Below, piece after piece: positions 4,852-19,633 of a stretch of DNA of 42,138 nt. The stretch is from a virus: UHGV virus genome UHGV-0055357; one strand, given 5' to 3'. Under the pieces are notes generated by a model that was not told the DNA's origin, did not search any database, and saw nothing but the letters and a program-made list of their open reading frames with translations. The position numbers were made by a program, and so were the translations under genes. The first letter of the stretch is position 1, and each line of letters opens with the position of its first letter.

Positions 4852-4862
4852 TTCTGGATGGA

Positions 4863-6017
4863 TTACGCTTTGTGTTTCTTAAAATTTTCGTCGTTTTGGA
4901 CGAAATGGAGAGAGTCCAGTATCAATCCCGCGATCCGCAGGATGTCCTCGGGTGAGTCCAGGTAAATGCGGTTGCCGTCTGCCTCCAGCCCGGCCCTGGA
5001 TATTTCATTGTAAATTACTGGTGTGAACTCAATAGGGAGTTGAATAGATGAGCGCAACTTTTTGTCATGATATCGAGCTATCCATCTATTTGTTTTTCCT
5101 TTAAATAGTACGGAAAAATAGGACTCTGTATCTTTGCCGTGTAAATCAACGTCTGCTCCCACAATGGCCTGGATTTTTTCGAACACCACCCGCTCGTTAT
5201 AGGTGGTGATAATATTTGGATTGTTGGGGTCGATAATATCAGCAGTCTCATCAATTACGGGTTCGTTGGCTGGATCTGGTTGCTGTACCACTTCCTCAAC
5301 TGCGGGATTGAACGACAGGCCGGATACCACCATTGCGCTGAGTGAGCGCTCTACTGCCTGTTTAACCAGCGGGGTAATTGACTCCAGAAATTTTTGGTTC
5401 AACTGACGTCCGATATTGGCATGGCTGGCAACATAACGAACAAAATCAACGTCAACCTCTTTGAGGCTTGCTGTGATAATTTTGGTGAATGACGATATGT
5501 AAACGCTTTCCTCCGCCAGAGTTCGTAGCGCCTCAGGCTTGAATTTATCGTGACGGAATCTAAAAAGCTGTTCGGCGTCAGCGTCTGAAATATCGTCCAT
5601 CACAACGCGTAAAAACGGCGTTGTGTCCATGATGTTTTTCTCTTTTAAATCAGTAAAAAAGCGCCACTCAACACCGTTAGTTATCGCGGAGATCGTAACT
5701 TCTGGAGTTGAGTTGAAATAGCGGGAGAGCTGCGGGCAATGGTTGTCGATTTTTTCCCGGCAGGATTTTGCTTCGATAAACATGACAGGCACACCCTGGC
5801 AGAATAGCGCGTAATCGACTCGCTCACCACTTTTGACGCCAGGGAAATCGGCGGCATACTCGGCTTTAACTTTCTGCGGATCGTAGGCATTAAAACCTAA
5901 AATATCTAAAAATGGCAGGATTAGCGCCTGTTTCGTGGTTTCTTCAGTTGTGCAGTGTTCCCTAACGTTTTTAACGTGTTCGATGTGATTTTTTAACTTT
6001 TGCTTAAAGCTTTCCAT
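4863..6017 (-). CDS. PD-(D/E)xK nuclease, HsdR-N-terminal-like restriction-endonuclease fold, with uncharacterised C-terminal domain
   Basis: 384 aa. N-terminal motifs ETTKQALILPFLDILGF … RVDYALF … VMFIEAK … QLSRY … ITNGVEWRFF match the D…E-x-K core of the type I HsdR N-terminal nuclease family. Same strand as the repressor and 31 bp downstream of it. Confidence 0.8.
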   Translation of the reverse strand: MESFKQKLKNHIEHVKNVREHCTTEETTKQALILPFLDILGFNAYDPQKVKAEYAADFPGVKSGERVDYALFCQGVPVMFIEAKSCREKIDNHCPQLSRYFNSTPEVTISAITNGVEWRFFTDLKEKNIMDTTPFLRVVMDDISDADAEQLFRFRHDKFKPEALRTLAEESVYISSFTKIITASLKEVDVDFVRYVASHANIGRQLNQKFLESITPLVKQAVERSLSAMVVSGLSFNPAVEEVVQQPDPANEPVIDETADIIDPNNPNIITTYNERVVFEKIQAIVGADVDLHGKDTESYFSVLFKGKTNRWIARYHDKKLRSSIQLPIEFTPVIYNEISRAGLEADGNRIYLDSPEDILRIAGLILDSLHFVQNDENFKKHKA

Positions 6018-6048
6018 GTACTCATCCTTACGATATCCAACAAACTGG

Positions 6049-9464: not shown

Positions 9465-10005
9465 ATTTCATAAGTTCACGGAAGAGCAAAAATGCTGGTT
9501 ATTTATTCATAACGAGTTGTCTCGCAGAGAGGCAACTCGATTATTTAACCTGCGATTTCAAACGGAACTCATTGAACAGCAAATAATTAATTTCAGAAAA
9601 CGACACGCTTTGCTTACCGGGAGAACAGGACGGTTTGCTCCAGGGCAAAGCTCGCCATCTCTCTCGGGCGCAAAAGGTCCAAACAGGACGTCATTTAAGC
9701 GTGGACATACTCCAGCCAACAAAGCCCTGGTGGGGGAAGAGAGGGTGAGGGGGGGATACATTTACGTCAAAACGGTTGATGGGCGGTGGAAATTAAAACA
9801 TCGATTGCAGCATGGAGGGCAGGTAGTGAGGTTTTGGGATGGGGACGCAAACAATTTATCACCGGAAAATTTAATTCCAGTTACACGCTCCGAACATCTT
9901 ATTTTAAACAGAACGGGGTATTCACATACACCAGAACCCGTAAGGGATGCCCATATTGCCGTTGCAAAATTGAAAGCAAAGATCATTGAGGTAAAGAAAA
10001 AATGA
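9454..10005 (+). CDS. HNH endonuclease (HNH_3-like)
   Basis: 183 aa. HRLQHGGQVVRFWDGDANNLSPENLIPVTRSEH matches the HNH catalytic pattern (His, Asn-Asn, final Glu-His). 4-nt overlap with the downstream methyltransferase. Confidence 0.7.
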   Translation: MGNRFHKFTEEQKCWLFIHNELSRREATRLFNLRFQTELIEQQIINFRKRHALLTGRTGRFAPGQSSPSLSGAKGPNRTSFKRGHTPANKALVGEERVRGGYIYVKTVDGRWKLKHRLQHGGQVVRFWDGDANNLSPENLIPVTRSEHLILNRTGYSHTPEPVRDAHIAVAKLKAKIIEVKKK

Positions 10006-11534
10006 GCATTGCAAATGAACTCTGGCAGGCCGTTGACATATTGCGCGGAGAGGTAAAATCCTCAGAGTACGGAAAATATATTCTACCACTCGTTATCCTG
10101 CGCAGGATAGAGCAGGTTAGTGACGTGGAGACATTACATTCAATCACCACAGGTGCAGAACTAGCGCGGCATATAGCAACCCTTTCGGGTACAGTGCGGA
10201 ATATTTTATCCTGTTTTGATTTTGACAAAACAATCAATAAAACACATGACACAATAGTACAGCAGTTGGCCTTAGCGTTTTCCTGCATTGATGTTCACCC
10301 GGATCGCGTAAATTCTGGCGATATGGGCATGATATTTGAGGATATGATCCACCGTTTCGCGAGTGATGAAACGGCGGGCGAATTCTACACGCCAACGGAT
10401 ATAGTGAAACTGATTACAGAACTGGTGATTCCACTGGATATCTCCAGTGAGGTGGCAATATACGATCCGACCTGCGGGACGGGGGGGATACTCGGCGCGG
10501 CGGAGGAGGTTATTCGTACTCGCCGCCCTGGAGCTGACGTTACATTATATGGTCAGGAATTGAATCCCGAATCTTTCGCCATTTGCCGTGCAGATATGTT
10601 ATTGCGCGGCAGGGATCCTGAAAATATCAGGCTGGGCAATACATTATCCGAGGACAAACTGGCGGGGCGTACATTCGATTTTATTCTCTCTAATCCACCG
10701 TATGGGGTGGACTGGAAAAAAATCGATAAGCTTGTACGAGCTGAACACTGTCAGGGGTTTGCAGGCCGTTACCCAGCGGGGTTACCCCGTGTGTCGGACG
10801 GTTCTCTCCTGTTTGTGCAGCACGTTATCAGCAAGCTGGCACCGGGCGGTCGCGCAGGAATTGTACTCAACGGCTCGCCATTATTTACTGGTGGAGCGGG
10901 CAGTGGAGAGAGCCAAATTCGCAGACACATACTGGAAAACGACCTGCTGGATTGTATTATCGGACTGCCAAAAGACATGTTCTATAACACAGGGATCACC
11001 ACGTACATCTGGATACTGACAAATGAAAAGAGAGTAGAACGAAAAGGGCTGGTCACGCTAATTGATGCATCTGACCTATTTGAAAAAATGCGCAAATCTC
11101 AGGGCAATAAGCGCAATCAGCTGACTGACGCTCAGATCGCTGAAATCGTCAAGTTGTACCGTGATAATCAACCAGGTGAAAAAGTTAAGATTTTTCCGTA
11201 CACCGCTTTTGGTTTCCGCCGAATCACTGTTAAGCGCCCGGACGAGAACGGGAAACCCGATAAAAATAAACGCGATAATGAAAACGTGCCGCTGGGTGAG
11301 AATATCGACGCGTATTTTGCCAGAGAGGTTACGCCACACGTTCCTGACGCCTGGATTGACAGAAAGAAGCGAGATCCGGTTGACGGGGAGGTTGGGATTG
11401 TTGGCTATGAAATACCCTTTAATCGTCATTTTTATGTTTATGTCCCACCGCGTCCCCTTGAAGAAATTGACGCTGAGCTCGCGAGCGTAAGCCGTGAAAT
11501 TGCTGCAATGCTTGCCGAGATGCAAGCGTATTAG
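10002..11534 (+). CDS. N6-adenine DNA methyltransferase, HsdM-like, no adjacent specificity subunit
   Basis: 510 aa. SAM-binding motif I IYDPTCGTGGIL, catalytic motif IV SNPPYG, C-terminal GYEIPFNRHFYVY motif as in type I M subunits. No HsdS or HsdR helicase gene nearby. Confidence 0.85.
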   Translation: MSIANELWQAVDILRGEVKSSEYGKYILPLVILRRIEQVSDVETLHSITTGAELARHIATLSGTVRNILSCFDFDKTINKTHDTIVQQLALAFSCIDVHPDRVNSGDMGMIFEDMIHRFASDETAGEFYTPTDIVKLITELVIPLDISSEVAIYDPTCGTGGILGAAEEVIRTRRPGADVTLYGQELNPESFAICRADMLLRGRDPENIRLGNTLSEDKLAGRTFDFILSNPPYGVDWKKIDKLVRAEHCQGFAGRYPAGLPRVSDGSLLFVQHVISKLAPGGRAGIVLNGSPLFTGGAGSGESQIRRHILENDLLDCIIGLPKDMFYNTGITTYIWILTNEKRVERKGLVTLIDASDLFEKMRKSQGNKRNQLTDAQIAEIVKLYRDNQPGEKVKIFPYTAFGFRRITVKRPDENGKPDKNKRDNENVPLGENIDAYFAREVTPHVPDAWIDRKKRDPVDGEVGIVGYEIPFNRHFYVYVPPRPLEEIDAELASVSREIAAMLAEMQAY

Positions 11535-11908
11535 TCTTTTCTTGACGTTCATTTATTCATAATCATACCGTATGCATAAACGGTAAATATTGAGTGTGAT
11601 TATGGGTAAAGATGCTAACTATGACGTGGGCGTGAGCGGGGAGACGATGGGCTTTATAACGCCCAGAAAGTGGGTTTTTTCCAGCGAGCCAAAGTGTATG
11701 GTGGTGGGTGGTGGTTTGGCGGGCTTATCCTGATTGCTTTGTGTTCGAATTTGAGGCGCCCACGTCATTGAGCCAGGGGATCGCATACATTGCCAGCTAC
11801 AACAAAATGGCAGCAATGCCCGAATTCGACGACGACTTTCGGCTTGAACCCTGAGCTGCTCATATACGTTTTGAATAATTGCATTTACCCACAGTGTAGT
11901 TATTTGAG

Positions 11909-13637: not shown

Positions 13638-14243
13638 ATGGCTAAACAACCGAGGCGCAAATGCAAAATCTGCCGCGAGTGGTTTCACCCGGCGGCGTTT
13701 AATATCTGGTGGTGCTGCCCGGATCACGGCGTTGAATACGCGCTACAGCTCCGGGCGAAACAGCGCGAAAAACAGCAGGCAAAAGAAAAGCGGGAGCGGG
13801 CGCAATCAGCGAAAAATGAGCGCGCGAAATGGCGTGAGCGGAAAGCAAAAGTTAAGCCCCTGACACACTGGATCAACATGACACAGCGCGCGTTCAATGA
13901 CCTCTGTCGCGAGACAGACCTGGCAAACGGGGAGGGCTGTATTTCGTGCGGCACACGCGATGCGTTCGCGTGGCACGCGGGACACTACCGGACAACAGCG
14001 GCGGCGGGCCAGTTACGTTTCACCCGTGCCAACGTCAACCTGCAATGCGATGCCTGCAACGTTCACAAATCAGGAAATATCGAGCGTTACCGGATCGGAC
14101 TGGTGCAAAAAATTGGCGAGGCCGCTGTGATGGAGATAGAGAGTAACACCACAGCACACCGCTGGACCGTCGAAGAACTGGCAACAATACGCGCGGAGGC
14201 CCGCACTGGATTACGTGAATTGAAAAAGAGGGTCGCAGCATGA
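13638..14243 (+). CDS. ninG: NinG / Rap-family recombination protein
   Basis: Starts MAKQPRRKCKICREWFHPA, with CISCGT … WHAGHYRTTAAAGQLRF … HKSGN … IESN … HRWT colinear with lambda NinG. Start taken at the ATG at 13638 rather than the track start 13608. Confidence 0.85.
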   Translation: MAKQPRRKCKICREWFHPAAFNIWWCCPDHGVEYALQLRAKQREKQQAKEKRERAQSAKNERAKWRERKAKVKPLTHWINMTQRAFNDLCRETDLANGEGCISCGTRDAFAWHAGHYRTTAAAGQLRFTRANVNLQCDACNVHKSGNIERYRIGLVQKIGEAAVMEIESNTTAHRWTVEELATIRAEARTGLRELKKRVAA

Positions 14244-14896
14244 CGTATAACGCCGGTTTTAAATCACTCCCGCTTATAACCAGTGAGGCGCATTTACGCC
14301 GTATCTGGTGTCATGGCAAACGCACTATAACGCCGGGTCAGCGTGTGTGGGTGCGGTATATGTTGAACCTGTGGGGATCTGTGATGGGGGGCGATACTTG
14401 CCCGGGCTGTTCGGGGTCAAGCGTGATAGGGCGCTTAATGATGCAGCAGGAATGGGATCAGGATAGCGCGGATCGCATCATCCATGCTGTTAACAGATTG
14501 CATGAAGAAGGTCTGCGGGGCGAAGAGTTGTTCCGCAAGGCTCGCGAATTGGTGATCCCACAATCCACGACAAAATACTGGCTTGAAAAGACTCAGGCTG
14601 ATGATGACGCGGAGTTCATTGAGCGAGTGATAGTTAAGACGTTGCGAAAAGATAGCCCGATGTACGCGGTTGCGGTTCTCAGGCATTGCTCACACCTCAA
14701 CACGCACCGTGTAGCTGTAACTTTGGCAGGGATGACAGGGACAGATGTGCAGGCCGCTCGAAAGCGGATTGTATGGTGTGAGAAGGTTTTAGAGGAAGAC
14801 TTGTTTTATGCAATGCGGCGAGAACTGAGAGCCGAGCTGACTGATTTACAAAATGGAAGCAGAGCAATGCAAGCCCGTGGCTACTCAGACTTATGA
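14240..14896 (+). CDS. late-gene antiterminator, Q-like
   Basis: 218 aa, directly after ninG and before a hairpin terminator. Cys-rich CPGCSGS motif. Assignment is mainly positional. Confidence 0.5.
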   Translation: MTYNAGFKSLPLITSEAHLRRIWCHGKRTITPGQRVWVRYMLNLWGSVMGGDTCPGCSGSSVIGRLMMQQEWDQDSADRIIHAVNRLHEEGLRGEELFRKARELVIPQSTTKYWLEKTQADDDAEFIERVIVKTLRKDSPMYAVAVLRHCSHLNTHRVAVTLAGMTGTDVQAARKRIVWCEKVLEEDLFYAMRRELRAELTDLQNGSRAMQARGYSDL

Positions 14897-14983
14897 GCAC
14901 TTTTTGTTAATTAAACGAAAAAATAAACTGACACTATTTGTATATGCTCGGCAGTGTTACACATTGAGCAAAACAATTTAAAA

Positions 14984-15008
14984 CCCCGTCAATCAGATGG
15001 GGTTTTTT
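14984..15008 (+). terminator. tR'-like intrinsic terminator downstream of the Q-like gene
   Basis: CCCCGTC-AATCA-GATGGGG followed by TTTTTT, ~85 bp after the Q stop. Position matches lambda tR' ending the short late-promoter transcript. Confidence 0.65.
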
Positions 15009-15140
15009 CATTTAGAAGGTCTTTTTACTACGACTCCCAACACTTTGTATGCATAATGGGTTTGAGTTAACCTTCAAAAATTCGCTTTAATCATTATTTT
15101 TTTGTATCATTTTGAAAAAAAATAGAAATGTAATGAATCA

Positions 15141-16037
15141 ATGACTACGATTATCGCACAAGATTCTGTTTTCGCTGCTGTAGACCAACTTTGGACGGAT
15201 GAAGAAGACAGGCCAGCAGCCGCACCGTTTAAGAAGTATTACGTATTAAATGACTCTATACTTTTCTTTTCCGGCTACATCGACCCAATCTTAGCAATTT
15301 TGGCTGGCTACATCGGTGACCGCATCGGTGTTGATGAGGAGTTCGCCGATTGGATTGCAAAATATGTTGAAGCAGAGCGTAGTACCTGTGAATTCATTGA
15401 GGTGGATAGAAAGAGTGGGGCGATTACCTATTACATAGGTGCGGAGCGATTAAAAGCATTGGGTAGCATTTTTTACTGTGCAGGCTCTGGTTCAACATAT
15501 GCTATCAATTCGTATATTGATAGCGTTAGCATCATCAATACTGGTGGCGCTTTTGACTTTTCGCAGCATGGTCTAAACCTGATTACACGAAGTATGAACA
15601 TTGCTTTCCAAAAGGATCCGTGCTCTGGTGGTGATTTTAACTTTATTATCTGGTTGGAAAATGCTCAGGTCATTGATCGGTTAGACTGGATTGCAGATGC
15701 CCACATCGACAACTACAATAAAAAGATAAAGACTAAAATTATCGAGAGATTTGAAAGCGTAGATTGTCTGAAGGAAATGCTTGCATGGATGAATGATGAG
15801 TCAAAAGAGGATGATAAAGAGATGGAAATTGAAGCGAAAATCTTTGACCAGCAAGACGTGAAGAGTTATAGTCCGCAAACTAATTTAGCAGCAAAAGGAA
15901 GATCCAAAATGAGCAACACTACTCAGCAGAAACCAAGGGTTGCAGTGAAGACCTCGGGTTCTTCTCGAGGTGCAGTGTTAAGCGCATCTTCACTTAAAGC
16001 ACGTTTAGCCCAGCGTAAAGCAGAGGGGCTAAGCTAA
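15141..16037 (+). CDS. HslV / proteasome-beta-like Ntn-hydrolase domain protein with C-terminal extension (moron)
   Basis: 298 aa. N-terminus MTTII (Thr directly after Met), FKKYYVLND aligning with HslV VKKVRRLYND, and CAGSGSTYA aligning with HslV IGSGGPYA. Extra ~110-aa charged/basic tail. AT-rich upstream region and its own terminator. Confidence 0.7.
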   Translation: MTTIIAQDSVFAAVDQLWTDEEDRPAAAPFKKYYVLNDSILFFSGYIDPILAILAGYIGDRIGVDEEFADWIAKYVEAERSTCEFIEVDRKSGAITYYIGAERLKALGSIFYCAGSGSTYAINSYIDSVSIINTGGAFDFSQHGLNLITRSMNIAFQKDPCSGGDFNFIIWLENAQVIDRLDWIADAHIDNYNKKIKTKIIERFESVDCLKEMLAWMNDESKEDDKEMEIEAKIFDQQDVKSYSPQTNLAAKGRSKMSNTTQQKPRVAVKTSGSSRGAVLSASSLKARLAQRKAEGLS

Positions 16038-16058
16038 TTAATTAGCATCATAAAAAAA

Positions 16059-16079
16059 GCGCCTGCGGGCGCTTTTTTT
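16059..16079 (+). terminator. intrinsic terminator after the moron gene
   Basis: AAAAAAA-GCGCC-TGCG-GGCGC-TTTTTTT, 20 bp after the stop at 16037. The A-tract/T-tract symmetry would allow termination in both directions. Confidence 0.7.
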
Positions 16080-16518
16080 GTATTGCCCCTAAACAACCTC
16101 TTCAGGTGGTCTTTTACTCTAAAACGTGATGACTTTCCTTCAGCTTATCAAGATTCAGGCGAGATCGTTATGTTCCATGAATCGCCGAATTTCATGGATT
16201 CAAACTAGAGGGAACTTTGGAGCTTCTAGTTAACTGTCTTCCTGAGGATGTGTAATGGTACTGAATGAGCTTGCAATCTGATGGGGCAGCTTTCTTCAAT
16301 TTCATATACCTCATAAGAAAATTACAACCTTGTAGTGCTGTTTCTCTTGCTCATAGATAACATTCACTACGTTTTGTACTTGCTTGGGGCTTGATTGACT
16401 TAATTCCGTTAGCTTATCTGCAATAAGGCGAAAAAGGTCGATGCGCTTTTCGGCGTAACATTTATCAATCAGTTGCGTTAGCGTCTTATTTACTAATTTC
16501 TTTTAAGGGTGAGATTCA

Positions 16519-16839
16519 ATGCCTCACAAATCATTAGTCGATTTCGTAGCGCGAAACGACGGCACGATCACGCTCATGTTCCTGGCTATTGTCGGCGTTG
16601 TCGGCAGGGTGTTCTACACGGGCGCGCCCTGGCGGCAGGCTGTCGGGGATCTAATTCTCTGTCCGGCAATCACGTTTGCTATTGAGCCGTTGATGCCAAC
16701 TCAAATTTACGGGGTGAAAGTTACGCCTGAGCTGGTGGCGCTGTTGATCGGTATCGGCGGGGTGCACGGGGTTCGCTGGATTGTATCGCAGAGAAAAAAA
16801 CGACTCACAAACGTAACGGATGATAACCAGCCTCGCTAA
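16519..16839 (+). CDS. holin
   Basis: 106 aa, three predicted hydrophobic helices, basic C-terminus, immediately upstream of the endolysin. Confidence 0.65.
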   Translation: MPHKSLVDFVARNDGTITLMFLAIVGVVGRVFYTGAPWRQAVGDLILCPAITFAIEPLMPTQIYGVKVTPELVALLIGIGGVHGVRWIVSQRKKRLTNVTDDNQPR

Positions 16840-16866: not shown

Positions 16867-17352
16867 ATGAGCGAACCACGCTGGCTTACTGAAGCTCATA
16901 AATTTATCGGACTGAAAGAGATTAAAGGGCCGCAGCATAACCAGGAGATCCTCCAGTTCTGGCGCGATATTAAACGCGGCGGAATTAAAGACGATGAAAC
17001 GCCCTGGTGTGCTGCGTTCACCGGAGCTGTGCTGGAACGTTGCGGAATTAAATCAACGCTGTTTGAGTCGGCTGGCTCATACCTCGGCTGGGGTGAACAG
17101 CTATTAAAACCGGCGTTCGGGTGCGTTGTTGTATTTAAACGCGACGGCGGCGGGCATGTTGGTTTTGTTGTCGGTCAAAATAGCGCGGGTGATTTGCTGG
17201 TGCTGGGCGGCAATCAGTCTGACGCGGTGAATATCAAAGCGTTCCCGCGCTCGCGGGTTAGCGGTTATCGCTGGCCCGTAGGTGTTCAGGATATTCCTGA
17301 TTTTAATTTGCCCGAACGGGTGAATATTAGTTTTTCAATTAGTGAGGCGTGA
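16867..17352 (+). CDS. endolysin, CHAP / NlpC-P60-like peptidoglycan hydrolase
   Basis: 161 aa. Cys in TPWCAAF and His in GGGHVGFVV fit the Cys-His pair of CHAP-type cell-wall hydrolases. Sits after the holin. Confidence 0.65.
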   Translation: MSEPRWLTEAHKFIGLKEIKGPQHNQEILQFWRDIKRGGIKDDETPWCAAFTGAVLERCGIKSTLFESAGSYLGWGEQLLKPAFGCVVVFKRDGGGHVGFVVGQNSAGDLLVLGGNQSDAVNIKAFPRSRVSGYRWPVGVQDIPDFNLPERVNISFSISEA

Positions 17353-17801: not shown

Positions 17802-17997
17802 CAATATGACTCGTTGACAATTTACAGCAAATAAACACTACAGAGCGTCAATTACTGGCGCTCAATAGTGATTATTGGAAGGTGGGCGACCGCCGCCAGT
17901 TGGAGCTGGCGACAGTCATTCATACCCACAGGGTGCCGTGGATACAAACCGAGGCCCACTTGCTCGCGCGAGCCGGGTAATAGTAATCGGAATAGAC

Positions 17998-18777
17998 ATG
18001 GCTGAACAGATAGCAGTTATTTTTAAAAACATTTCCGAACTGAATGAGTACGAACGAAATACGCGGACACATTCAGATGAGCAGGTTGCGCAGATAGCAA
18101 AAAGCATTGATGAGTTCGGCTGGACTAACCCGGTGCTGATTGATGAGGCCGGGGAAATTATTGCAGGCCACGGGCGCGTTGCTGCTGCAAAAGATCTCGG
18201 GCTGAATGAGGTCCCAACAATCACCCTTTATGGCCTGACCAACGAGCAAAAACGCGCGTACCGGATCGCGGACAACAAATTGCCGTTAAATGCGGGTTGG
18301 GATGATGAGCTGCTACGGCTAGAACTAACGGAACTCAGCGCCTGCGGGTTCGATATAGAGCTAACTGGATTTAGTGCGGGCGAACTCGATGAGCTATTGG
18401 CGGAAATAGCGCCCGGTGCGGAGTCGGAAGATCCGTACACAACAAAAATTGACACCCCGGTTTATGAGCCGTCTGAAATTAATCCTGCAGTAACTGAACT
18501 CTACGATGACTCAAAAACACACCAGCTCGTTAATGATATTCGTGCGGCTGGGCTACCTGGCGACGTGGAAAAGTTTTTACTCTCTGCCGCTGAGCGTCAC
18601 ACGGTATTCAATTTCAATAAAATTGCTGATTACTACGCGCACGCACCAGAAAATATCCAGACACTATTTGAACAATCCGCACTGGTGATCATTGATTACG
18701 AAAAAGCCATTGAATACGGCCTCGTCCACATGACGCAGAAACTGGTTGAAATAGTTTACGGTGATCGCGATGCGTGA
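17998..18777 (+). CDS. ParB-like nuclease domain protein
   Basis: GWTNPVLIDEAGEIIAGHGRVAAAKDLG matches the ParB N-terminal nuclease motif. Start taken at the ATG at 17998; the track extension from a TTG at 17875 looks non-coding. Confidence 0.7.
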   Translation: MAEQIAVIFKNISELNEYERNTRTHSDEQVAQIAKSIDEFGWTNPVLIDEAGEIIAGHGRVAAAKDLGLNEVPTITLYGLTNEQKRAYRIADNKLPLNAGWDDELLRLELTELSACGFDIELTGFSAGELDELLAEIAPGAESEDPYTTKIDTPVYEPSEINPAVTELYDDSKTHQLVNDIRAAGLPGDVEKFLLSAAERHTVFNFNKIADYYAHAPENIQTLFEQSALVIIDYEKAIEYGLVHMTQKLVEIVYGDRDA

Positions 18778-19633
18778 TGATTTTTGCGCGTTCATCATGA
18801 CGCACGGGCGACCCGACAAAGTTCTTACATACAGCACATTGAGACGTGCCGGATACACGGGAAAAATTTATATCGTCATTGATGACGAGGACGAATCACA
18901 GCAGCGTTATCGTGATGAATTCGGGGATCAGGTTCTGGTTTTTTCAAAAGGGGACATCGCCAGCCGATTTGATGAGGGTGACAATTTCGGTGACCGCCGT
19001 TCGATATTTTACGCCCGCAACGCCTGTTTTGAGTTGGCGGAATTAGTTGGCTGCAAATATTTTATTCAGCTCGATGATGATTATCACGAATTTCAGTTCC
19101 GTATTAATGAGAATCTGGACGTAGCGTATACCGCAATCCGTAATCTGGACGAGGTGCTCAACGAAATGCTGGAGTATTACCTGCGAATACCAGCAGCATC
19201 GATAGCAATGTCGCAAGGCGGCGATTTTCTCGGCTCAAGGACTGATGGTTGCGGGGCGTGGATAAAACGCAAAGCGATGAACAGTTTTATTTGTTCAACG
19301 GATCGCAAATTTGAGTTTGTCGGGCGGGTTAACGAGGACGTGAACACGTACACGAACCTCGGTCGTCGTGGCGAGCTGTTTATGACTATCGGTGCTGTTC
19401 AGTTGGGACAGAAACAGACGCAAAAAAATAGCGGTGGCATGACTGAGTTATATCTGGATTCAGGAACCTACGTAAAAAGTTTTTATTCGGTCATGTATTC
19501 GCCGTCATGCGTAAAGATCGGATTGATGGGCGCAAGCCATAAACGATTACATCACGAGGTGACCTGGAATAACGCCGCAGTAAAAATCATCAATGAGCGT
19601 TATAAAAAATGCCGTCAACGGGGTTCGATATGA
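18761..19633 (+). CDS. hypothetical protein with acidic DxD-like motifs
   Basis: 290 aa. IVIDDEDE and IQLDDDYHEF motifs. No family recognised with confidence. Confidence 0.55.
   Translation: MIAMRDDFCAFIMTHGRPDKVLTYSTLRRAGYTGKIYIVIDDEDESQQRYRDEFGDQVLVFSKGDIASRFDEGDNFGDRRSIFYARNACFELAELVGCKYFIQLDDDYHEFQFRINENLDVAYTAIRNLDEVLNEMLEYYLRIPAASIAMSQGGDFLGSRTDGCGAWIKRKAMNSFICSTDRKFEFVGRVNEDVNTYTNLGRRGELFMTIGAVQLGQKQTQKNSGGMTELYLDSGTYVKSFYSVMYSPSCVKIGLMGASHKRLHHEVTWNNAAVKIINERYKKCRQRGSI

Follow-up and report, generated by a model that had tools for sequence, protein, structure and literature searches.

At the locus studied here, a 298-aa ORF lies between a Q-like gene with its terminator and a holin gene in UHGV virus genome UHGV-0055357, of which a stretch of 42,138 nucleotides was analyzed (the window). 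This arrangement had been described in an earlier note on the same DNA and was confirmed: the upstream neighbor carries Pfam DUF1133 and lies directly 3' of NinG, the downstream neighbor is a Phage_holin_3_1 gene, and the range given in that note (15011–16080) corresponds to the large ORF plus its leader and terminator (Table 1). In Citrobacter prophages, DUF1133 co-matches a Phage_antitermQ protein at the same position, so that the label 'Q-like' for the upstream gene is reasonable. The large ORF occupies a low-GC cassette that is bounded by two strong terminators. The upstream region is AT-rich, as had been noted, with the leader (14897–15140) at 30% GC as against 50% for the window, and the large ORF itself at 42%. 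The strong terminator previously placed at 16059–16079 was recovered as a hairpin of about 16050–16081. Since an A-run and a T-run flank both of its sides it is potentially bidirectional, and it closes both of the transcription units considered here, that of the large ORF and that of an ORF nested within it. Equivalent terminators are found 3' of the gene in Morganella and Vibrio. A search of the whole window against Rfam gave no matches.

Table 1. Features of the cassette and its neighbors (positions are those of the window).
Feature	Position	Strand	Description
Q-like gene (DUF1133)	14240..14896	+	Upstream edge of cargo slot; Pfam DUF1133 E = 2e-5
Intrinsic terminator, tR'-like	14980..15006	+	5' of cassette; terminator scan; RNA fold -15.8 kcal/mol, z -5.0
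AT-rich leader of large ORF	15007..15140	+	Without Shine-Dalgarno and without consensus sigma-70 promoter
Large ORF	15141..16037	+	298 aa; proteasome-beta/HslV-like N-terminal-threonine hydrolase homologue; ATG at 15141
Regions of the 298-aa protein			Catalytic domain aa 1-180; two extra helices aa 186-237; disordered linker aa 240-263; docking tail aa 264-298
Thr2 codon	15144..15146	+	Predicted catalytic N-terminal nucleophile after Met1 removal; MTT invariant, n = 24 homologues
Asp15 (15183-15185) to Lys32 (15234-15236)	15183..15236	+	Putative equivalents of proteasome Asp17 and Lys33; both invariant
Gly115-Ser116-Gly117	15483..15491	+	Putative equivalent of beta5 Gly128-Ser129-Gly130 (phmmer alignment, yeast beta5)
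Asp159-Pro-Cys161-Ser162-Gly163-Gly164	15615..15632	+	Putative equivalent of beta5 Asp166 ... Ser169-Gly170-Gly171 (phmmer alignment)
Nested sigma-70-like promoter	15844..15872	+	TTGACC (15844-15849), 17-nt spacer, TATAGT (15867-15872); promoter scan
Internal Shine-Dalgarno AAAGGAAGA	15894..15902	+	Nucleotides conserved, encoded residues differ
Nested in-frame small ORF	15909..16037	+	Met257 to stop, 42 aa, MSNTTQQKPRVAVKTSGSSRGAVLSASSLKARLAQRKAEGLS; tail module as a predicted separate peptide
Strong intrinsic terminator	16050..16081	+	RNA fold -20.2 kcal/mol, z -5.3; A-run and T-run flank hairpin
Holin	16519..16839	+	Pfam Phage_holin_3_1; downstream edge of cargo slot
CHAP endolysin	16867-17352		3' of holin

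The start of the large ORF is poorly furnished with expression signals. The promoter scan of the leader (15007–15140) returned none at the tool's threshold, and a possible -10 element, TATCAT, is present at 15105–15110, the surrounding stretch being common to the Klebsiella (TATAAT) and Lelliottia copies in an alignment of upstream sequences. A Shine-Dalgarno (SD) sequence at the main start is absent in every locus checked: the anti-SD duplex energy at Met1 was about 0 in the ten loci scored first, and did not go beyond -3.1 kcal/mol in two that were added later. The earlier note had reported that an HslU-like ATPase partner was missing, and in the RefSeq annotation of 41,201 bp of prophage and left flank there is indeed no AAA+ or HslU-like gene.

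The protein matched the PHROG 1040 profile 'peptidase HslV family' (E = 1e-7), with aa 1–246 aligned to profile positions 14–228 of 277, an extent that disposes of the objection that the similarity might be confined to short chance motifs. The same profile was matched by 18 of 19 family members (best E = 4e-16), and the match is remote, as a tblastn search of 50,697 phage records turned up no relative. The protein resembles solved proteasomes weakly in sequence (E about 0.01–0.05, phmmer and hmmsearch against PDB chains), Pfam Proteasome (PF00227) gave no match to it even at E up to 10, and scans of the protein against Pfam, NCBIfam and PADLOC produced nothing relevant, only coiled-coil noise (ATP11, a chlamydiaphage scaffold model). 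When the family profile was aligned by hhalign to a single E. coli HslV sequence, only the N-terminal 23 columns aligned; this single-sequence template is too weak, and structure was relied on instead. The AF2 model of the 298-aa protein (pLDDT 84.7) displays the four-layer alpha-beta-beta-alpha sandwich of Ntn hydrolases with strands S1–S10 and helices H1–H4 (H1 aa 47–62, H2 aa 66–79), and Foldseek against the PDB returned E = 2e-6 at probability 1.0, so that the structure prediction that had been proposed as a check gave the expected fold. The structural matches include HslV of T. brucei and T. maritima, and those to beta subunits are much stronger than those to connectase or alpha subunits. 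Significant whole-domain sequence similarity to HslV was not found. These results support the identification of the protein as a divergent proteasome-like (T1-type) homologue rather than HslV proper; of the HslV/proteasome-beta likeness originally claimed, the proteasome-like part stands (PHROG 1040, catalytic set), while the assignment to HslV itself does not (no PF00227 match, no adjacent HslU).

The residues expected of such an enzyme appear to be in place. The MTTII N-terminus, the Lys-Lys pair and the GSG motif that had been pointed out are all present (K31-K32 at the Lys33 position; G115-S116-G117), and the conservation of Thr, Asp and Lys is borne out across homologues. Among 19–24 of these, M1, T2, T3, D15, K32, G45 (the Gly47 equivalent), G115, G117, D159, C161 and G163 are invariant, and S44, S116 and S162 are kept in at least 90%. 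A methionine preceding threonine is removed according to the methionine-aminopeptidase rule; a propeptide would be unneeded, since removal of Met1 would expose the Thr. An in-frame stop five codons 5' of the ATG excludes a longer N-terminus. The register of Thr1, Asp17 and Lys33 coincides in an hmmsearch alignment to the archaeal beta subunit 3h4p, where the N-terminal stretch scores 1.7 bits and is not significant alone. Further along, the D-x-C-S-G-G motif of the protein aligns with the D166/S169/G170 motif of 20S beta5, and we take this motif to be absent from the HslV sequence that was used for comparison. Judged from these alignments, the whole N-terminal-threonine catalytic set is retained, with putative equivalents of Thr1, Asp17, Lys33, Gly47, Gly-Ser-Gly, Asp166 and Ser169, and the large protein would be an active, probably specific protease. 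The large ORF is shown to be under purifying selection (dN/dS 0.07–0.12). Three outcomes had been named in advance as refuting the original proposal, namely the lack of an Ntn fold in structure prediction, catalytic positions that are not conserved and similarity limited to short motifs; all three were examined and none of them was observed.

Beyond the catalytic domain the protein is extended by aa 181–298 (roughly 110–118 aa). An added charged tail of about 110 aa had been described; the extension exists, but it is more than a charged tail, being built of two helices, the disordered linker and a docking module that is conserved, and it contains the nested gene. In the AF2 model the linker (aa 240–263) has a pLDDT below 50 and includes the internal Met257; in the model of the short form, the sole disordered stretch (aa 199–202) ends at the internal Met202. 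Both models thus place the disordered hinge at the internal Met, and the tail that follows has a pLDDT of 72–94. In both AlphaFold models, whose underlying alignments are shallow (14 and 24 sequences), the tail forms beta-bridges and is placed with high confidence, and we read it as packing in cis against the catalytic domain. No other region is conserved as well as the tail (66% identity, compared with 50% for the core). Synonymous divergence is lower in the linker and tail, which could reflect recombination instead of constraint. Used alone as a query, the tail peptide found no family and no structure, and a weak ASH2 match was due to low complexity. A likeness of the peptide to ribosomal protein L34 was unsupported by Pfam.

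The DNA encoding the linker and tail carries a second set of expression signals. A sigma-70-like promoter is found at the identical aligned position in 11 of 11 loci, in the form TTGACn-17-TATAGT (or CATAAT, TATAAT) and at a constant distance from the internal SD and ATG. Vibrio splendidus likewise has all three elements, with a near-consensus promoter 5' of the internal SD and Met, and V. cholerae keeps the internal SD and ATG, its match to the nested promoter being weak and badly placed. Altogether, promoter, SD and a near-invariant Met (kept in at least 90% of sequences) are retained at the nucleotide level in 12 of 13 loci, and the 13th retains SD and Met. Among conserved 6-nt windows the -35 hexamer falls within the highest 0.2% and the -10 hexamer within the highest 1.8%, with a spacer that is 57% identical; the residues encoded at the two hexamers vary (F/V/I/L-D; YS/HN/YL), as do those encoded at the SD (AKGR, KGD, EEE, EGG or AGG). 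Anti-SD energies at the internal site range from -5.6 to -11.9 kcal/mol and are the gene-wide minimum in four loci. A terminator follows directly 3' of the small ORF in three distant loci, and public annotations of other genomes list separate proteins of 42–54 aa that start at the internal Met. A degenerate DNA pattern of promoter, SD and ATG approximates a generic strong gene start and, among the matches listed, retrieved unrelated and mostly Firmicutes genomes. The conservation pattern supports the view that the 'tail' of the protease is at the same time a nested gene, equipped with a separate promoter and ribosome-binding site and predicted to specify a 42-residue peptide. A cargo gene annotated merely as a 'hypothetical protein' can therefore conceal a small overlapping gene which goes unnoticed in standard annotation.

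The gene family is rare and mobile. Megablast and tblastn searches with the long and short forms found no match in the 50,697 phage records, and the gene occurs in 2 of 5,426 complete E. coli genomes. It fills the Q-holin slot in four different lambdoid prophages and in one decayed remnant, where the Q gene is split and the protease gene intact. Its position in the slot is constant behind three different Q families and before different lysis cassettes. The original description of the site as a cargo (moron) slot is supported by this survey, because the gene recurs at this site in other prophages. Among filamentous phages of Vibrio, one of them represented by a complete inovirus contig of 8.5 kb, it is located 3' of zot, as it is in V. 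cholerae, in a filamentous prophage adjoining rtxA. The gene adjoins an integrase in two genomes (Erwinia and V. splendidus), and in Morganella and Proteus chromosomes it is solitary and intact. None of 13 loci has an adjacent AAA+ gene.

The best explanation for the locus is, in our judgment, a two-product cassette with a peptide-regulated protease, the likeliest reading being a self-regulated accessory protease. We consider this probable, taken jointly with the view that the locus is an accessory cassette (moron) which is self-contained, moves horizontally and encodes two nested products. The first product would be the large N-terminal-threonine protease and the second its last 42 residues in the same reading frame, made alone from the near-consensus promoter, SD and ATG within the large gene. 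The free peptide may regulate the protease because it would compete with the tethered tail for a common site, most likely with a restraining effect; it could equally serve as an activator, an assembly factor or the main effector instead of an inhibitor. In a lysogen the peptide would be made steadily, and output of the large ORF, which lacks an SD and lies behind a terminator, would presumably be weak until raised by Q-dependent read-through. The cassette is expected to serve the cell that carries it, perhaps by phage exclusion or by remodelling host proteins, rather than virion production.

A single-locus protease-antidote module is conceivable but rather doubtful. In such a module the threonine protease would be checked by its own tail peptide, made in excess from the nested promoter. 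Loss or out-titration of a labile peptide, upon infection by another phage or upon prophage induction, would then free the protease to degrade specific host or phage proteins, giving the lysogen abortive-infection or exclusion immunity, or some other conversion phenotype. If true, this would account for the presence of the cassette in the toxin slots of lambdoid and CTX-like filamentous phages, and for its domestication in Morganella and Proteus. The PADLOC-DB v2 models of defence proteins gave 0 families at E up to 1, and there is therefore no direct link to defence.

It is improbable that the protein is a phage-encoded HslV that uses host HslU (or a ClpX-type unfoldase) and so retargets or poisons ATP-dependent proteolysis, with the basic C-terminal tail docking. 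The HslV-like MTTII N-terminus, the name of the PHROG 1040 family, the two HslV structures among the structural matches and the lack of a partner gene travelling with the protease gene would all fit, and the carrier genera are without exception enterobacterial or Vibrio relatives, groups known to possess HslUV. We likewise give little credence to a catalytically dead or non-proteolytic protein, whether a scaffold, a binding protein or a connectase-like peptide ligase/transpeptidase with the conserved RVAVKTSG motif of the tail as its substrate. The conservation of the full catalytic set argues against a dead enzyme, and a connectase is disfavored both by the much better match to beta subunits and by the model, which is without the connectase-like two-helix insertion between S3 and S4.

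That the gene is needed for lytic growth, with a late or lysis-associated function such as the processing of lysis or virion proteins in place of an accessory role, appears very unlikely. The position between Q and the holin is in its favor, as the gene would share Q-antiterminated late transcription, but the gene is missing from the phage records searched by tblastn and nearly so from E. coli, it is accompanied by several unrelated lysis cassettes and Q types, it is present in non-lytic filamentous phages and intact as a solitary chromosomal gene, and the cassette has terminators of its own. That the HslV/proteasome likeness consists of short chance motifs, and the nested promoter and SD of chance matches in AT-rich sequence, is scarcely credible: E-values against PDB chains are marginal and promoter-like matches are common in AT-rich DNA (in Proteus, 12 in 1.5 kb against 10.3 expected), but this explanation was tested and rejected in the present analysis. 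A role as capsid protease or scaffold, similar to lambda C/Nu3, was also considered and set aside, the gene being outside the head module of a prophage that has its own DUF2213 head-maturation gene, and being found also in filamentous phages and alone in chromosomes.

To our knowledge, hardly any proteasome-like protease other than HslV and the 20S particle has been characterised, and we know of no phage-borne one with a known role. The present family offers a compact and genetically tractable example, of about 1.1 kb, with no partner genes, a complete predicted catalytic set and a built-in second product that may regulate it. If the nested peptide does control the protease, a self-compartmentalising or Ntn protease would here be regulated by a design that is new, and the cassette might represent a prophage function, in conversion or immunity, of a type not described before.

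Compared with HslV (ClpQ), the phage protein has in common the Ntn sandwich fold, an MTT(I/L) N-terminus without a propeptide, Lys-Lys at the Lys33 position and Gly-Ser-Gly. It differs in having no hslU in its operon and no match to Pfam Proteasome, in its D-x-x-S-G-G motif, as in 20S beta5, and in about 118 extra C-terminal residues; moreover, HslV is encoded by a core heat-shock gene, whereas the phage gene is mobile and rare. To 20S beta subunits, Anbu and BPH it shows about 13–19% identity, and it has neither an alpha-type partner nor a propeptide; these proteins have no counterpart of its tail module or nested gene. The earlier note knew of no HslV-like protein described in this phage context, but proteasome homologues of phages have already been catalogued (PMC8665760; PHROG 1040; BFVD matches). 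PPH, RPC and DPH (Fuchs, Alva and Lupas 2021, PMC8665760) are group I homologues of the proteasome that are divergent, uncharacterised and confined to phages and proteobacteria, DPH being a small divergent proteobacterial group and PPH being flanked by phage genes in bacterial genomes; RPC and DPH are listed as not found in phages (PMC8665760). PPH and RPC are said to be without helix H2 (PMC8665760), whereas both H1 and H2 are present in the model of the phage protein, and the survey makes no mention of a nested gene such as the phage protein's gene contains. For a characterised phage HslV/proteasome homologue, the literature searched yielded the 2021 bioinformatic survey and annotation mentions only. 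The RPC and DPH reference sequences, WP_140207863 and WP_074989469.1 respectively, are not among the accessions listed for the clusters of the present family.

The nested arrangement resembles those of Tn5 transposase/inhibitor, sieB/esc and lambda C/Nu3 without any sequence relationship to them, and the phage case is set apart by a short product of 42 aa and a long product that is proteasome-like. All three, with sieB/esc known from both P22 and lambda, are nested in-frame genes in which a C-terminal short form is made from internal signals, an internal promoter being one of them in Tn5. In lambda, the scaffold gene Nu3 lies inside the protease gene C. In Tn5 (Inh versus transposase) and in sieB/esc (P22 Esc versus SieB), the long form is opposed by the short one, which is the relationship proposed here for the peptide and the protease.

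The location of the cassette invites comparison with phage-borne toxin genes. Unlike the Stx and cholera toxins, the phage protein has no signal peptide, and since it must also keep a free N-terminal Thr in the cytoplasm, it is not a secreted toxin. The stx genes lie between Q/tR' and the lysis genes, and ctxAB follows zot in CTXphi; the cassette is found at the same positions, as it follows Q and a terminator in lambdoid prophages and zot in the filamentous phages of Vibrio.

The large ORF, encoding a 298-aa protein, lies where the earlier note had placed it, between a Q-like gene and terminator on one side and the holin on the other, as the DUF1133 match and the terminator and holin positions confirm (see table). 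E. coli STEC384 and STEC379 carry a prophage beside ttcA with which the window is identical, and the gene is listed there as coding for a hypothetical protein (WP_059215995.1). The DUF1133 family co-hits a Phage_antitermQ protein at the equivalent position in Citrobacter prophages. An in-frame TAG five codons upstream of the ATG rules out an N-terminus longer than Met1, and there is no propeptide. The AT-rich upstream region (leader GC 30%, against 42% for the large ORF and 50% for the window) and the strong terminator after the gene were likewise borne out, as was the lack of an HslU-like partner: the annotation of the 41,201 bp examined (the E. coli prophage and its left flank) shows no AAA+ or HslU-like gene. 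From the end of the cassette (the large ORF with its flanking terminators) to the holin, window 16082-16518 spans ~440 nt without an ORF of 60 aa or more, where other prophages have only ~150-300 nt, and GC over 16038-16518 is 39%. This gap may be the leftover of another insertion, or a site of late-transcript signals.

Features of the Q-holin interval in the window, with the predicted nested promoter in other carriers (-35 hexamer, spacer length in nt, -10 hexamer)
Feature	Position in window	Strand	Details
Q-like gene	14240-14896	+	DUF1133 match; directly after NinG
Intrinsic terminator, upstream	14980-15006	+	-15.8 kcal/mol, z -5.0
Large ORF	15141-16037	+	ATG to stop, 298 aa
Nested promoter, window and four other enterics	15844-15872	+	TTGACC-17-TATAGT
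Nested promoter, Morganella			TTGACG-17-TATAGT
Nested promoter, Proteus			TTGACA-17-CATAAT
Nested promoter, Erwinia			TTGACC-17-TATCTT
Nested promoter, Vibrio			TTGGTA-17-TATAAT
Intrinsic terminator, downstream, stronger	~16050-16081	+	-20.2 kcal/mol, z -5.3
Holin	16519-16839	+	CHAP endolysin gene next

Scans of the large ORF product against Pfam and NCBIfam gave no relevant match. PHROG 1040 ("peptidase HslV family") matches aa 1-246 with E = 1e-7 and is matched by 18 of 19 relatives (best E 4e-16). Searching PDB sequences with phmmer returned proteasome beta5 chains only, weakly (E ~0.01), in an alignment that places G115-S116-G117 on G128-S129-G130 and D159-x-x-S162-G163-G164 on D166-x-x-S169-G170-G171. 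The family profile puts MTT ... D15 ... K31-K32 on Thr1, Asp17 and Lys33 of an archaeal beta subunit, a stretch that is not significant alone. In the AlphaFold2 model, made with a 14-sequence alignment (pLDDT 84.7, pTM 0.81), aa 1-180 contain S1-S10 and H1-H4 ordered as in a proteasome beta subunit, and Foldseek found 269 PDB matches below 1e-3, the top ones being 20S beta of M. tuberculosis, HslV of T. brucei and beta subunits from eukaryotes (E = 2e-6, probability 1.0). Among 19-24 homologues M1, T2, T3, D15, K32, G45, G115, G117, D159, C161 and G163 are invariant, and S44, S116 and S162 are kept in at least 90%; the catalytic set is complete and conserved. The large ORF is under purifying selection (dN/dS 0.07-0.12), and the conservation pattern supports a predicted active site in its product. 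Because structure prediction returned an Ntn-hydrolase fold, the catalytic positions are conserved among homologues and the similarity reaches beyond short chance motifs, the interpretation in the earlier note stands: the protein is proteasome/HslV-like in fold and catalytic apparatus, though not HslV itself.

The family is small, with 23 clusters among 5.8 billion proteins and 14 representatives in a second set of 1.8 billion, all members being named hypothetical. A long form of ~298 aa occurs in Escherichia, Klebsiella aerogenes, Lelliottia, Citrobacter, Morganella, Proteus, Pantoea and Erwinia, and a short form of 231-249 aa in Vibrio and Aliivibrio. It is carried by 2 of 5,426 complete E. 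coli genomes and was not found at BLAST level in sequenced phage records. The gene is mobile and travels alone at every locus, in settings of several kinds. A survey of related prophages found the gene in the Q-holin slot of four further lambdoid elements, in K. aerogenes, C. freundii, Citrobacter sp. and, as a decayed remnant, Lelliottia; Q families (DUF1133, PF06530, PF06323) and lysis genes differ among the carriers. The Lelliottia remnant (locus L013 4659-6900) is at ttcA, like the window's prophage; its Q is broken up into two ORFs, and downstream no genes for lysis or structural proteins were called, but the cassette is intact. The Erwinia copy has icd on one side and a prophage integrase on the other, and the V. 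splendidus copy adjoins an integrase. In Vibrio filamentous (inovirus) prophages the short form follows zot (L017 1-8744, L018, L020, L142 435-8696), including a complete 8.5-kb inovirus contig (L020, IMG/VR); this is the position held in CTXphi by ctxAB. A V. cholerae prophage copy lies directly beside rtxA. Intact solitary copies belong to the core chromosome in Morganella, between feoC and a bioH-like hydrolase gene (L002 5609-7734; 119 member sequences), and in Proteus, between yjdM and a thiL-like gene (L012 5205-7943), and since the neighbors are housekeeping genes and no phage genes lie nearby, domestication is suggested. A PIN toxin pair is located just upstream of the Proteus copy. 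The overall distribution argues for a self-sufficient accessory cassette that benefits the carrier cell or lysogen, and not for a function in lysis or the virion.

Within the large ORF, and in the same frame, a complete small gene is predicted at window 15844-16037, consisting of a sigma-70-like promoter, a Shine-Dalgarno (SD) sequence, an ATG and 42 codons, and 12 of the 13 homologous loci conserve it at the nucleotide level. The SD stood at a fixed distance upstream of the internal Met in the first ten loci examined and the encoded residues differ, being AAA GGA AGA (AKGR) in enterics, AAA GGA GAC (KGD) in Proteus, GAG GAG GAA (EEE) in Erwinia, and GAA or GCA followed by GGA GGT (EGG or AGG) in Vibrio. 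It pairs with the anti-SD at -5.6 to -11.9 kcal/mol, in four loci the lowest energy anywhere in the gene, compared with an essentially SD-less Met1 at every locus (~0 kcal/mol for the ten examined first, -3.1 kcal/mol at the strongest for the two added later). The leaders upstream of the main start are A/U-rich (window 15100-15143; L002, L005, L008, L009, L012, L013, L015), and those of E. coli, Klebsiella and Lelliottia share ~45 nt from a T-run, containing TATCAT, TATAAT or TAAAAT.

At each of the 11 loci checked the nested promoter precedes the internal ATG by 36 nt, or by 46 nt in the short form; no other promoter-like site is common to all eight long-form genes. V. splendidus combines TTGACA-18-TATTAT with an SD and a Met that opens a 49-aa tail; in V. 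cholerae the SD and Met are retained with only a weak promoter. Conservation reaches 96% in the -35 hexamer (within the top 0.2% of 6-nt windows across the gene) and 92% in the -10 hexamer (top 1.8%), whereas the 17-nt spacer, at 57%, is close to the 58% of third codon positions generally. The hexamer codons switch residues (F/V/I/L-D; YS/HN/YL) with the letters kept, so the hexamers are conserved as nucleotides, not as amino acids. A terminator directly follows the stop codon in the window, Morganella and Vibrio, and the nested unit would therefore be a ~200-nt transcript encoding a 42-aa basic peptide, MSNTTQQKPRVAVKTSGSSRGAVLSASSLKARLAQRKAEGLS.

The ~110-aa "charged tail" of the earlier note is present as an extension, and the peptide it encodes is basic, but the region is in four parts and holds the nested gene. 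In the AlphaFold model two extra helices (aa 186-204 and 207-237) are followed by a disordered linker (aa 240-263), then by a strand and a terminal helix (~aa 270-294, pLDDT 77-94). Met257, in the linker, is conserved in at least 90% of sequences, which is unexpected where no structure is predicted; the SD, the SD-less main start and the nested promoter, three nucleotide-level elements, would explain it. No part of the protein is better conserved than the tail (66% mean identity versus 50% for the core; dN/dS 0.02-0.11), for which Pfam and the PDB gave no match. The Vibrio short-form model (pLDDT 89.9) also places the tail confidently, with disorder only at residues 199-202, ending at internal Met202. 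Separate proteins of 42-54 aa starting at the internal Met appear in public annotations of Morganella and Aliivibrio, at the annotation level, one in Aliivibrio fischeri sharing a contig with a truncated large ORF, and in M. psychrotolerans (protein P0028) an in-frame deletion fuses MTTIISQ straight to the tail. The tail conservation, short-form model, separate annotations and this deletion all fit the nested-gene reading. Partial or whole loss of the catalytic core by natural deletion or truncation, with an intact tail frame, is seen in P0028, P0032 (Aliidiomarina), and P0069 and P0099 (Aliivibrio fischeri). Between E. coli and Klebsiella or Lelliottia, synonymous divergence (pS) is 0.29-0.43 in linker and tail and 0.74-0.83 in the core; the nested gene may constrain these nucleotides, or the 3' part may have been exchanged more recently by recombination.

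Methionine aminopeptidase tolerates threonine in second position, so Met1 would be removed to give an active N-terminal-Thr protease. Because the models place it with confidence and show beta-bridges, the tail is likely to pack against the catalytic domain. In lambdoid carriers the large ORF, preceded by a terminator and a weak leader and lacking an SD, would be made at a sharply higher rate on Q read-through; the peptide would be made constitutively. Produced from stronger signals, the free peptide may compete for the tail site and so tune the enzyme. In Tn5 (Inh/transposase) and in P22 and lambda (Esc/SieB) a nested shorter form restrains the longer one, and because of these precedents a role for the peptide in restraining the protease is favored. 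A role as activator or assembly aid would also fit, and the known behavior of proteasome tails and propeptides supplied in trans is compatible with such help. PADLOC did not support a known defense family for the large ORF product.

The window prophage (L001 3419-41201, in the matching E. coli locus) is a mosaic whose early, nin and Q regions resemble those of lambda. Baseplate, hub and spike proteins and a DUF3383 protein are annotated in its structural module, suggesting that the tail is contractile and not of the lambda type. Beside the repressor is a RefSeq 'type I restriction endonuclease' (window ~4860-6020, - strand; L001 9964-11118), and the nin region carries a class I SAM-dependent DNA methyltransferase (window ~10000-11540, + strand; L001 15103-16635), both candidates for further accessory or defense cargo. 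From the lysis genes to the terminase (window 17875-19633) are a ParB/Srx-domain protein and a 290-aa hypothetical protein, an insert unusual for a lambdoid late region. The K. aerogenes prophage encodes, in its early region and on the opposite strand (L008 1440-3169, - strand), a 397-aa AAA_15-type ATPase (faint match) and a 178-aa partner, a candidate two-gene defense system.

Compared with known systems, the large ORF product aligned with a single E. coli HslV sequence over only 23 columns in hhalign. Its D-x-C-S-G-G aligns with the D166/S169/G170 motif of 20S beta5, and a similar motif is presumably absent from HslV, going by that one sequence. On sequence, the short alignment and the motif set the product apart from HslV proper. 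The earlier note knew of no such protein, but phage-borne proteasome homologues are already catalogued, Fuchs et al. 2021, PHROG 1040 and BFVD being the sources, with at least 18 viral structural relatives in BFVD; the remark is thus right in part only. A literature search for phage proteasome/HslV homologues found no functional study of any such protein. The family may belong in RPC or DPH, proteasome-homologue groups of Fuchs et al. 2021 (PMC8665760); PPH and RPC are said to be without helix H2, whereas the AlphaFold model has H2. The assignment by structure is firm and the architecture is unusual, whereas the function is inferred. What appears new is the putative tail gene nested with its own promoter, the repeated placement in toxin slots of lambdoid and filamentous phages, and the solitary, apparently domesticated copies.
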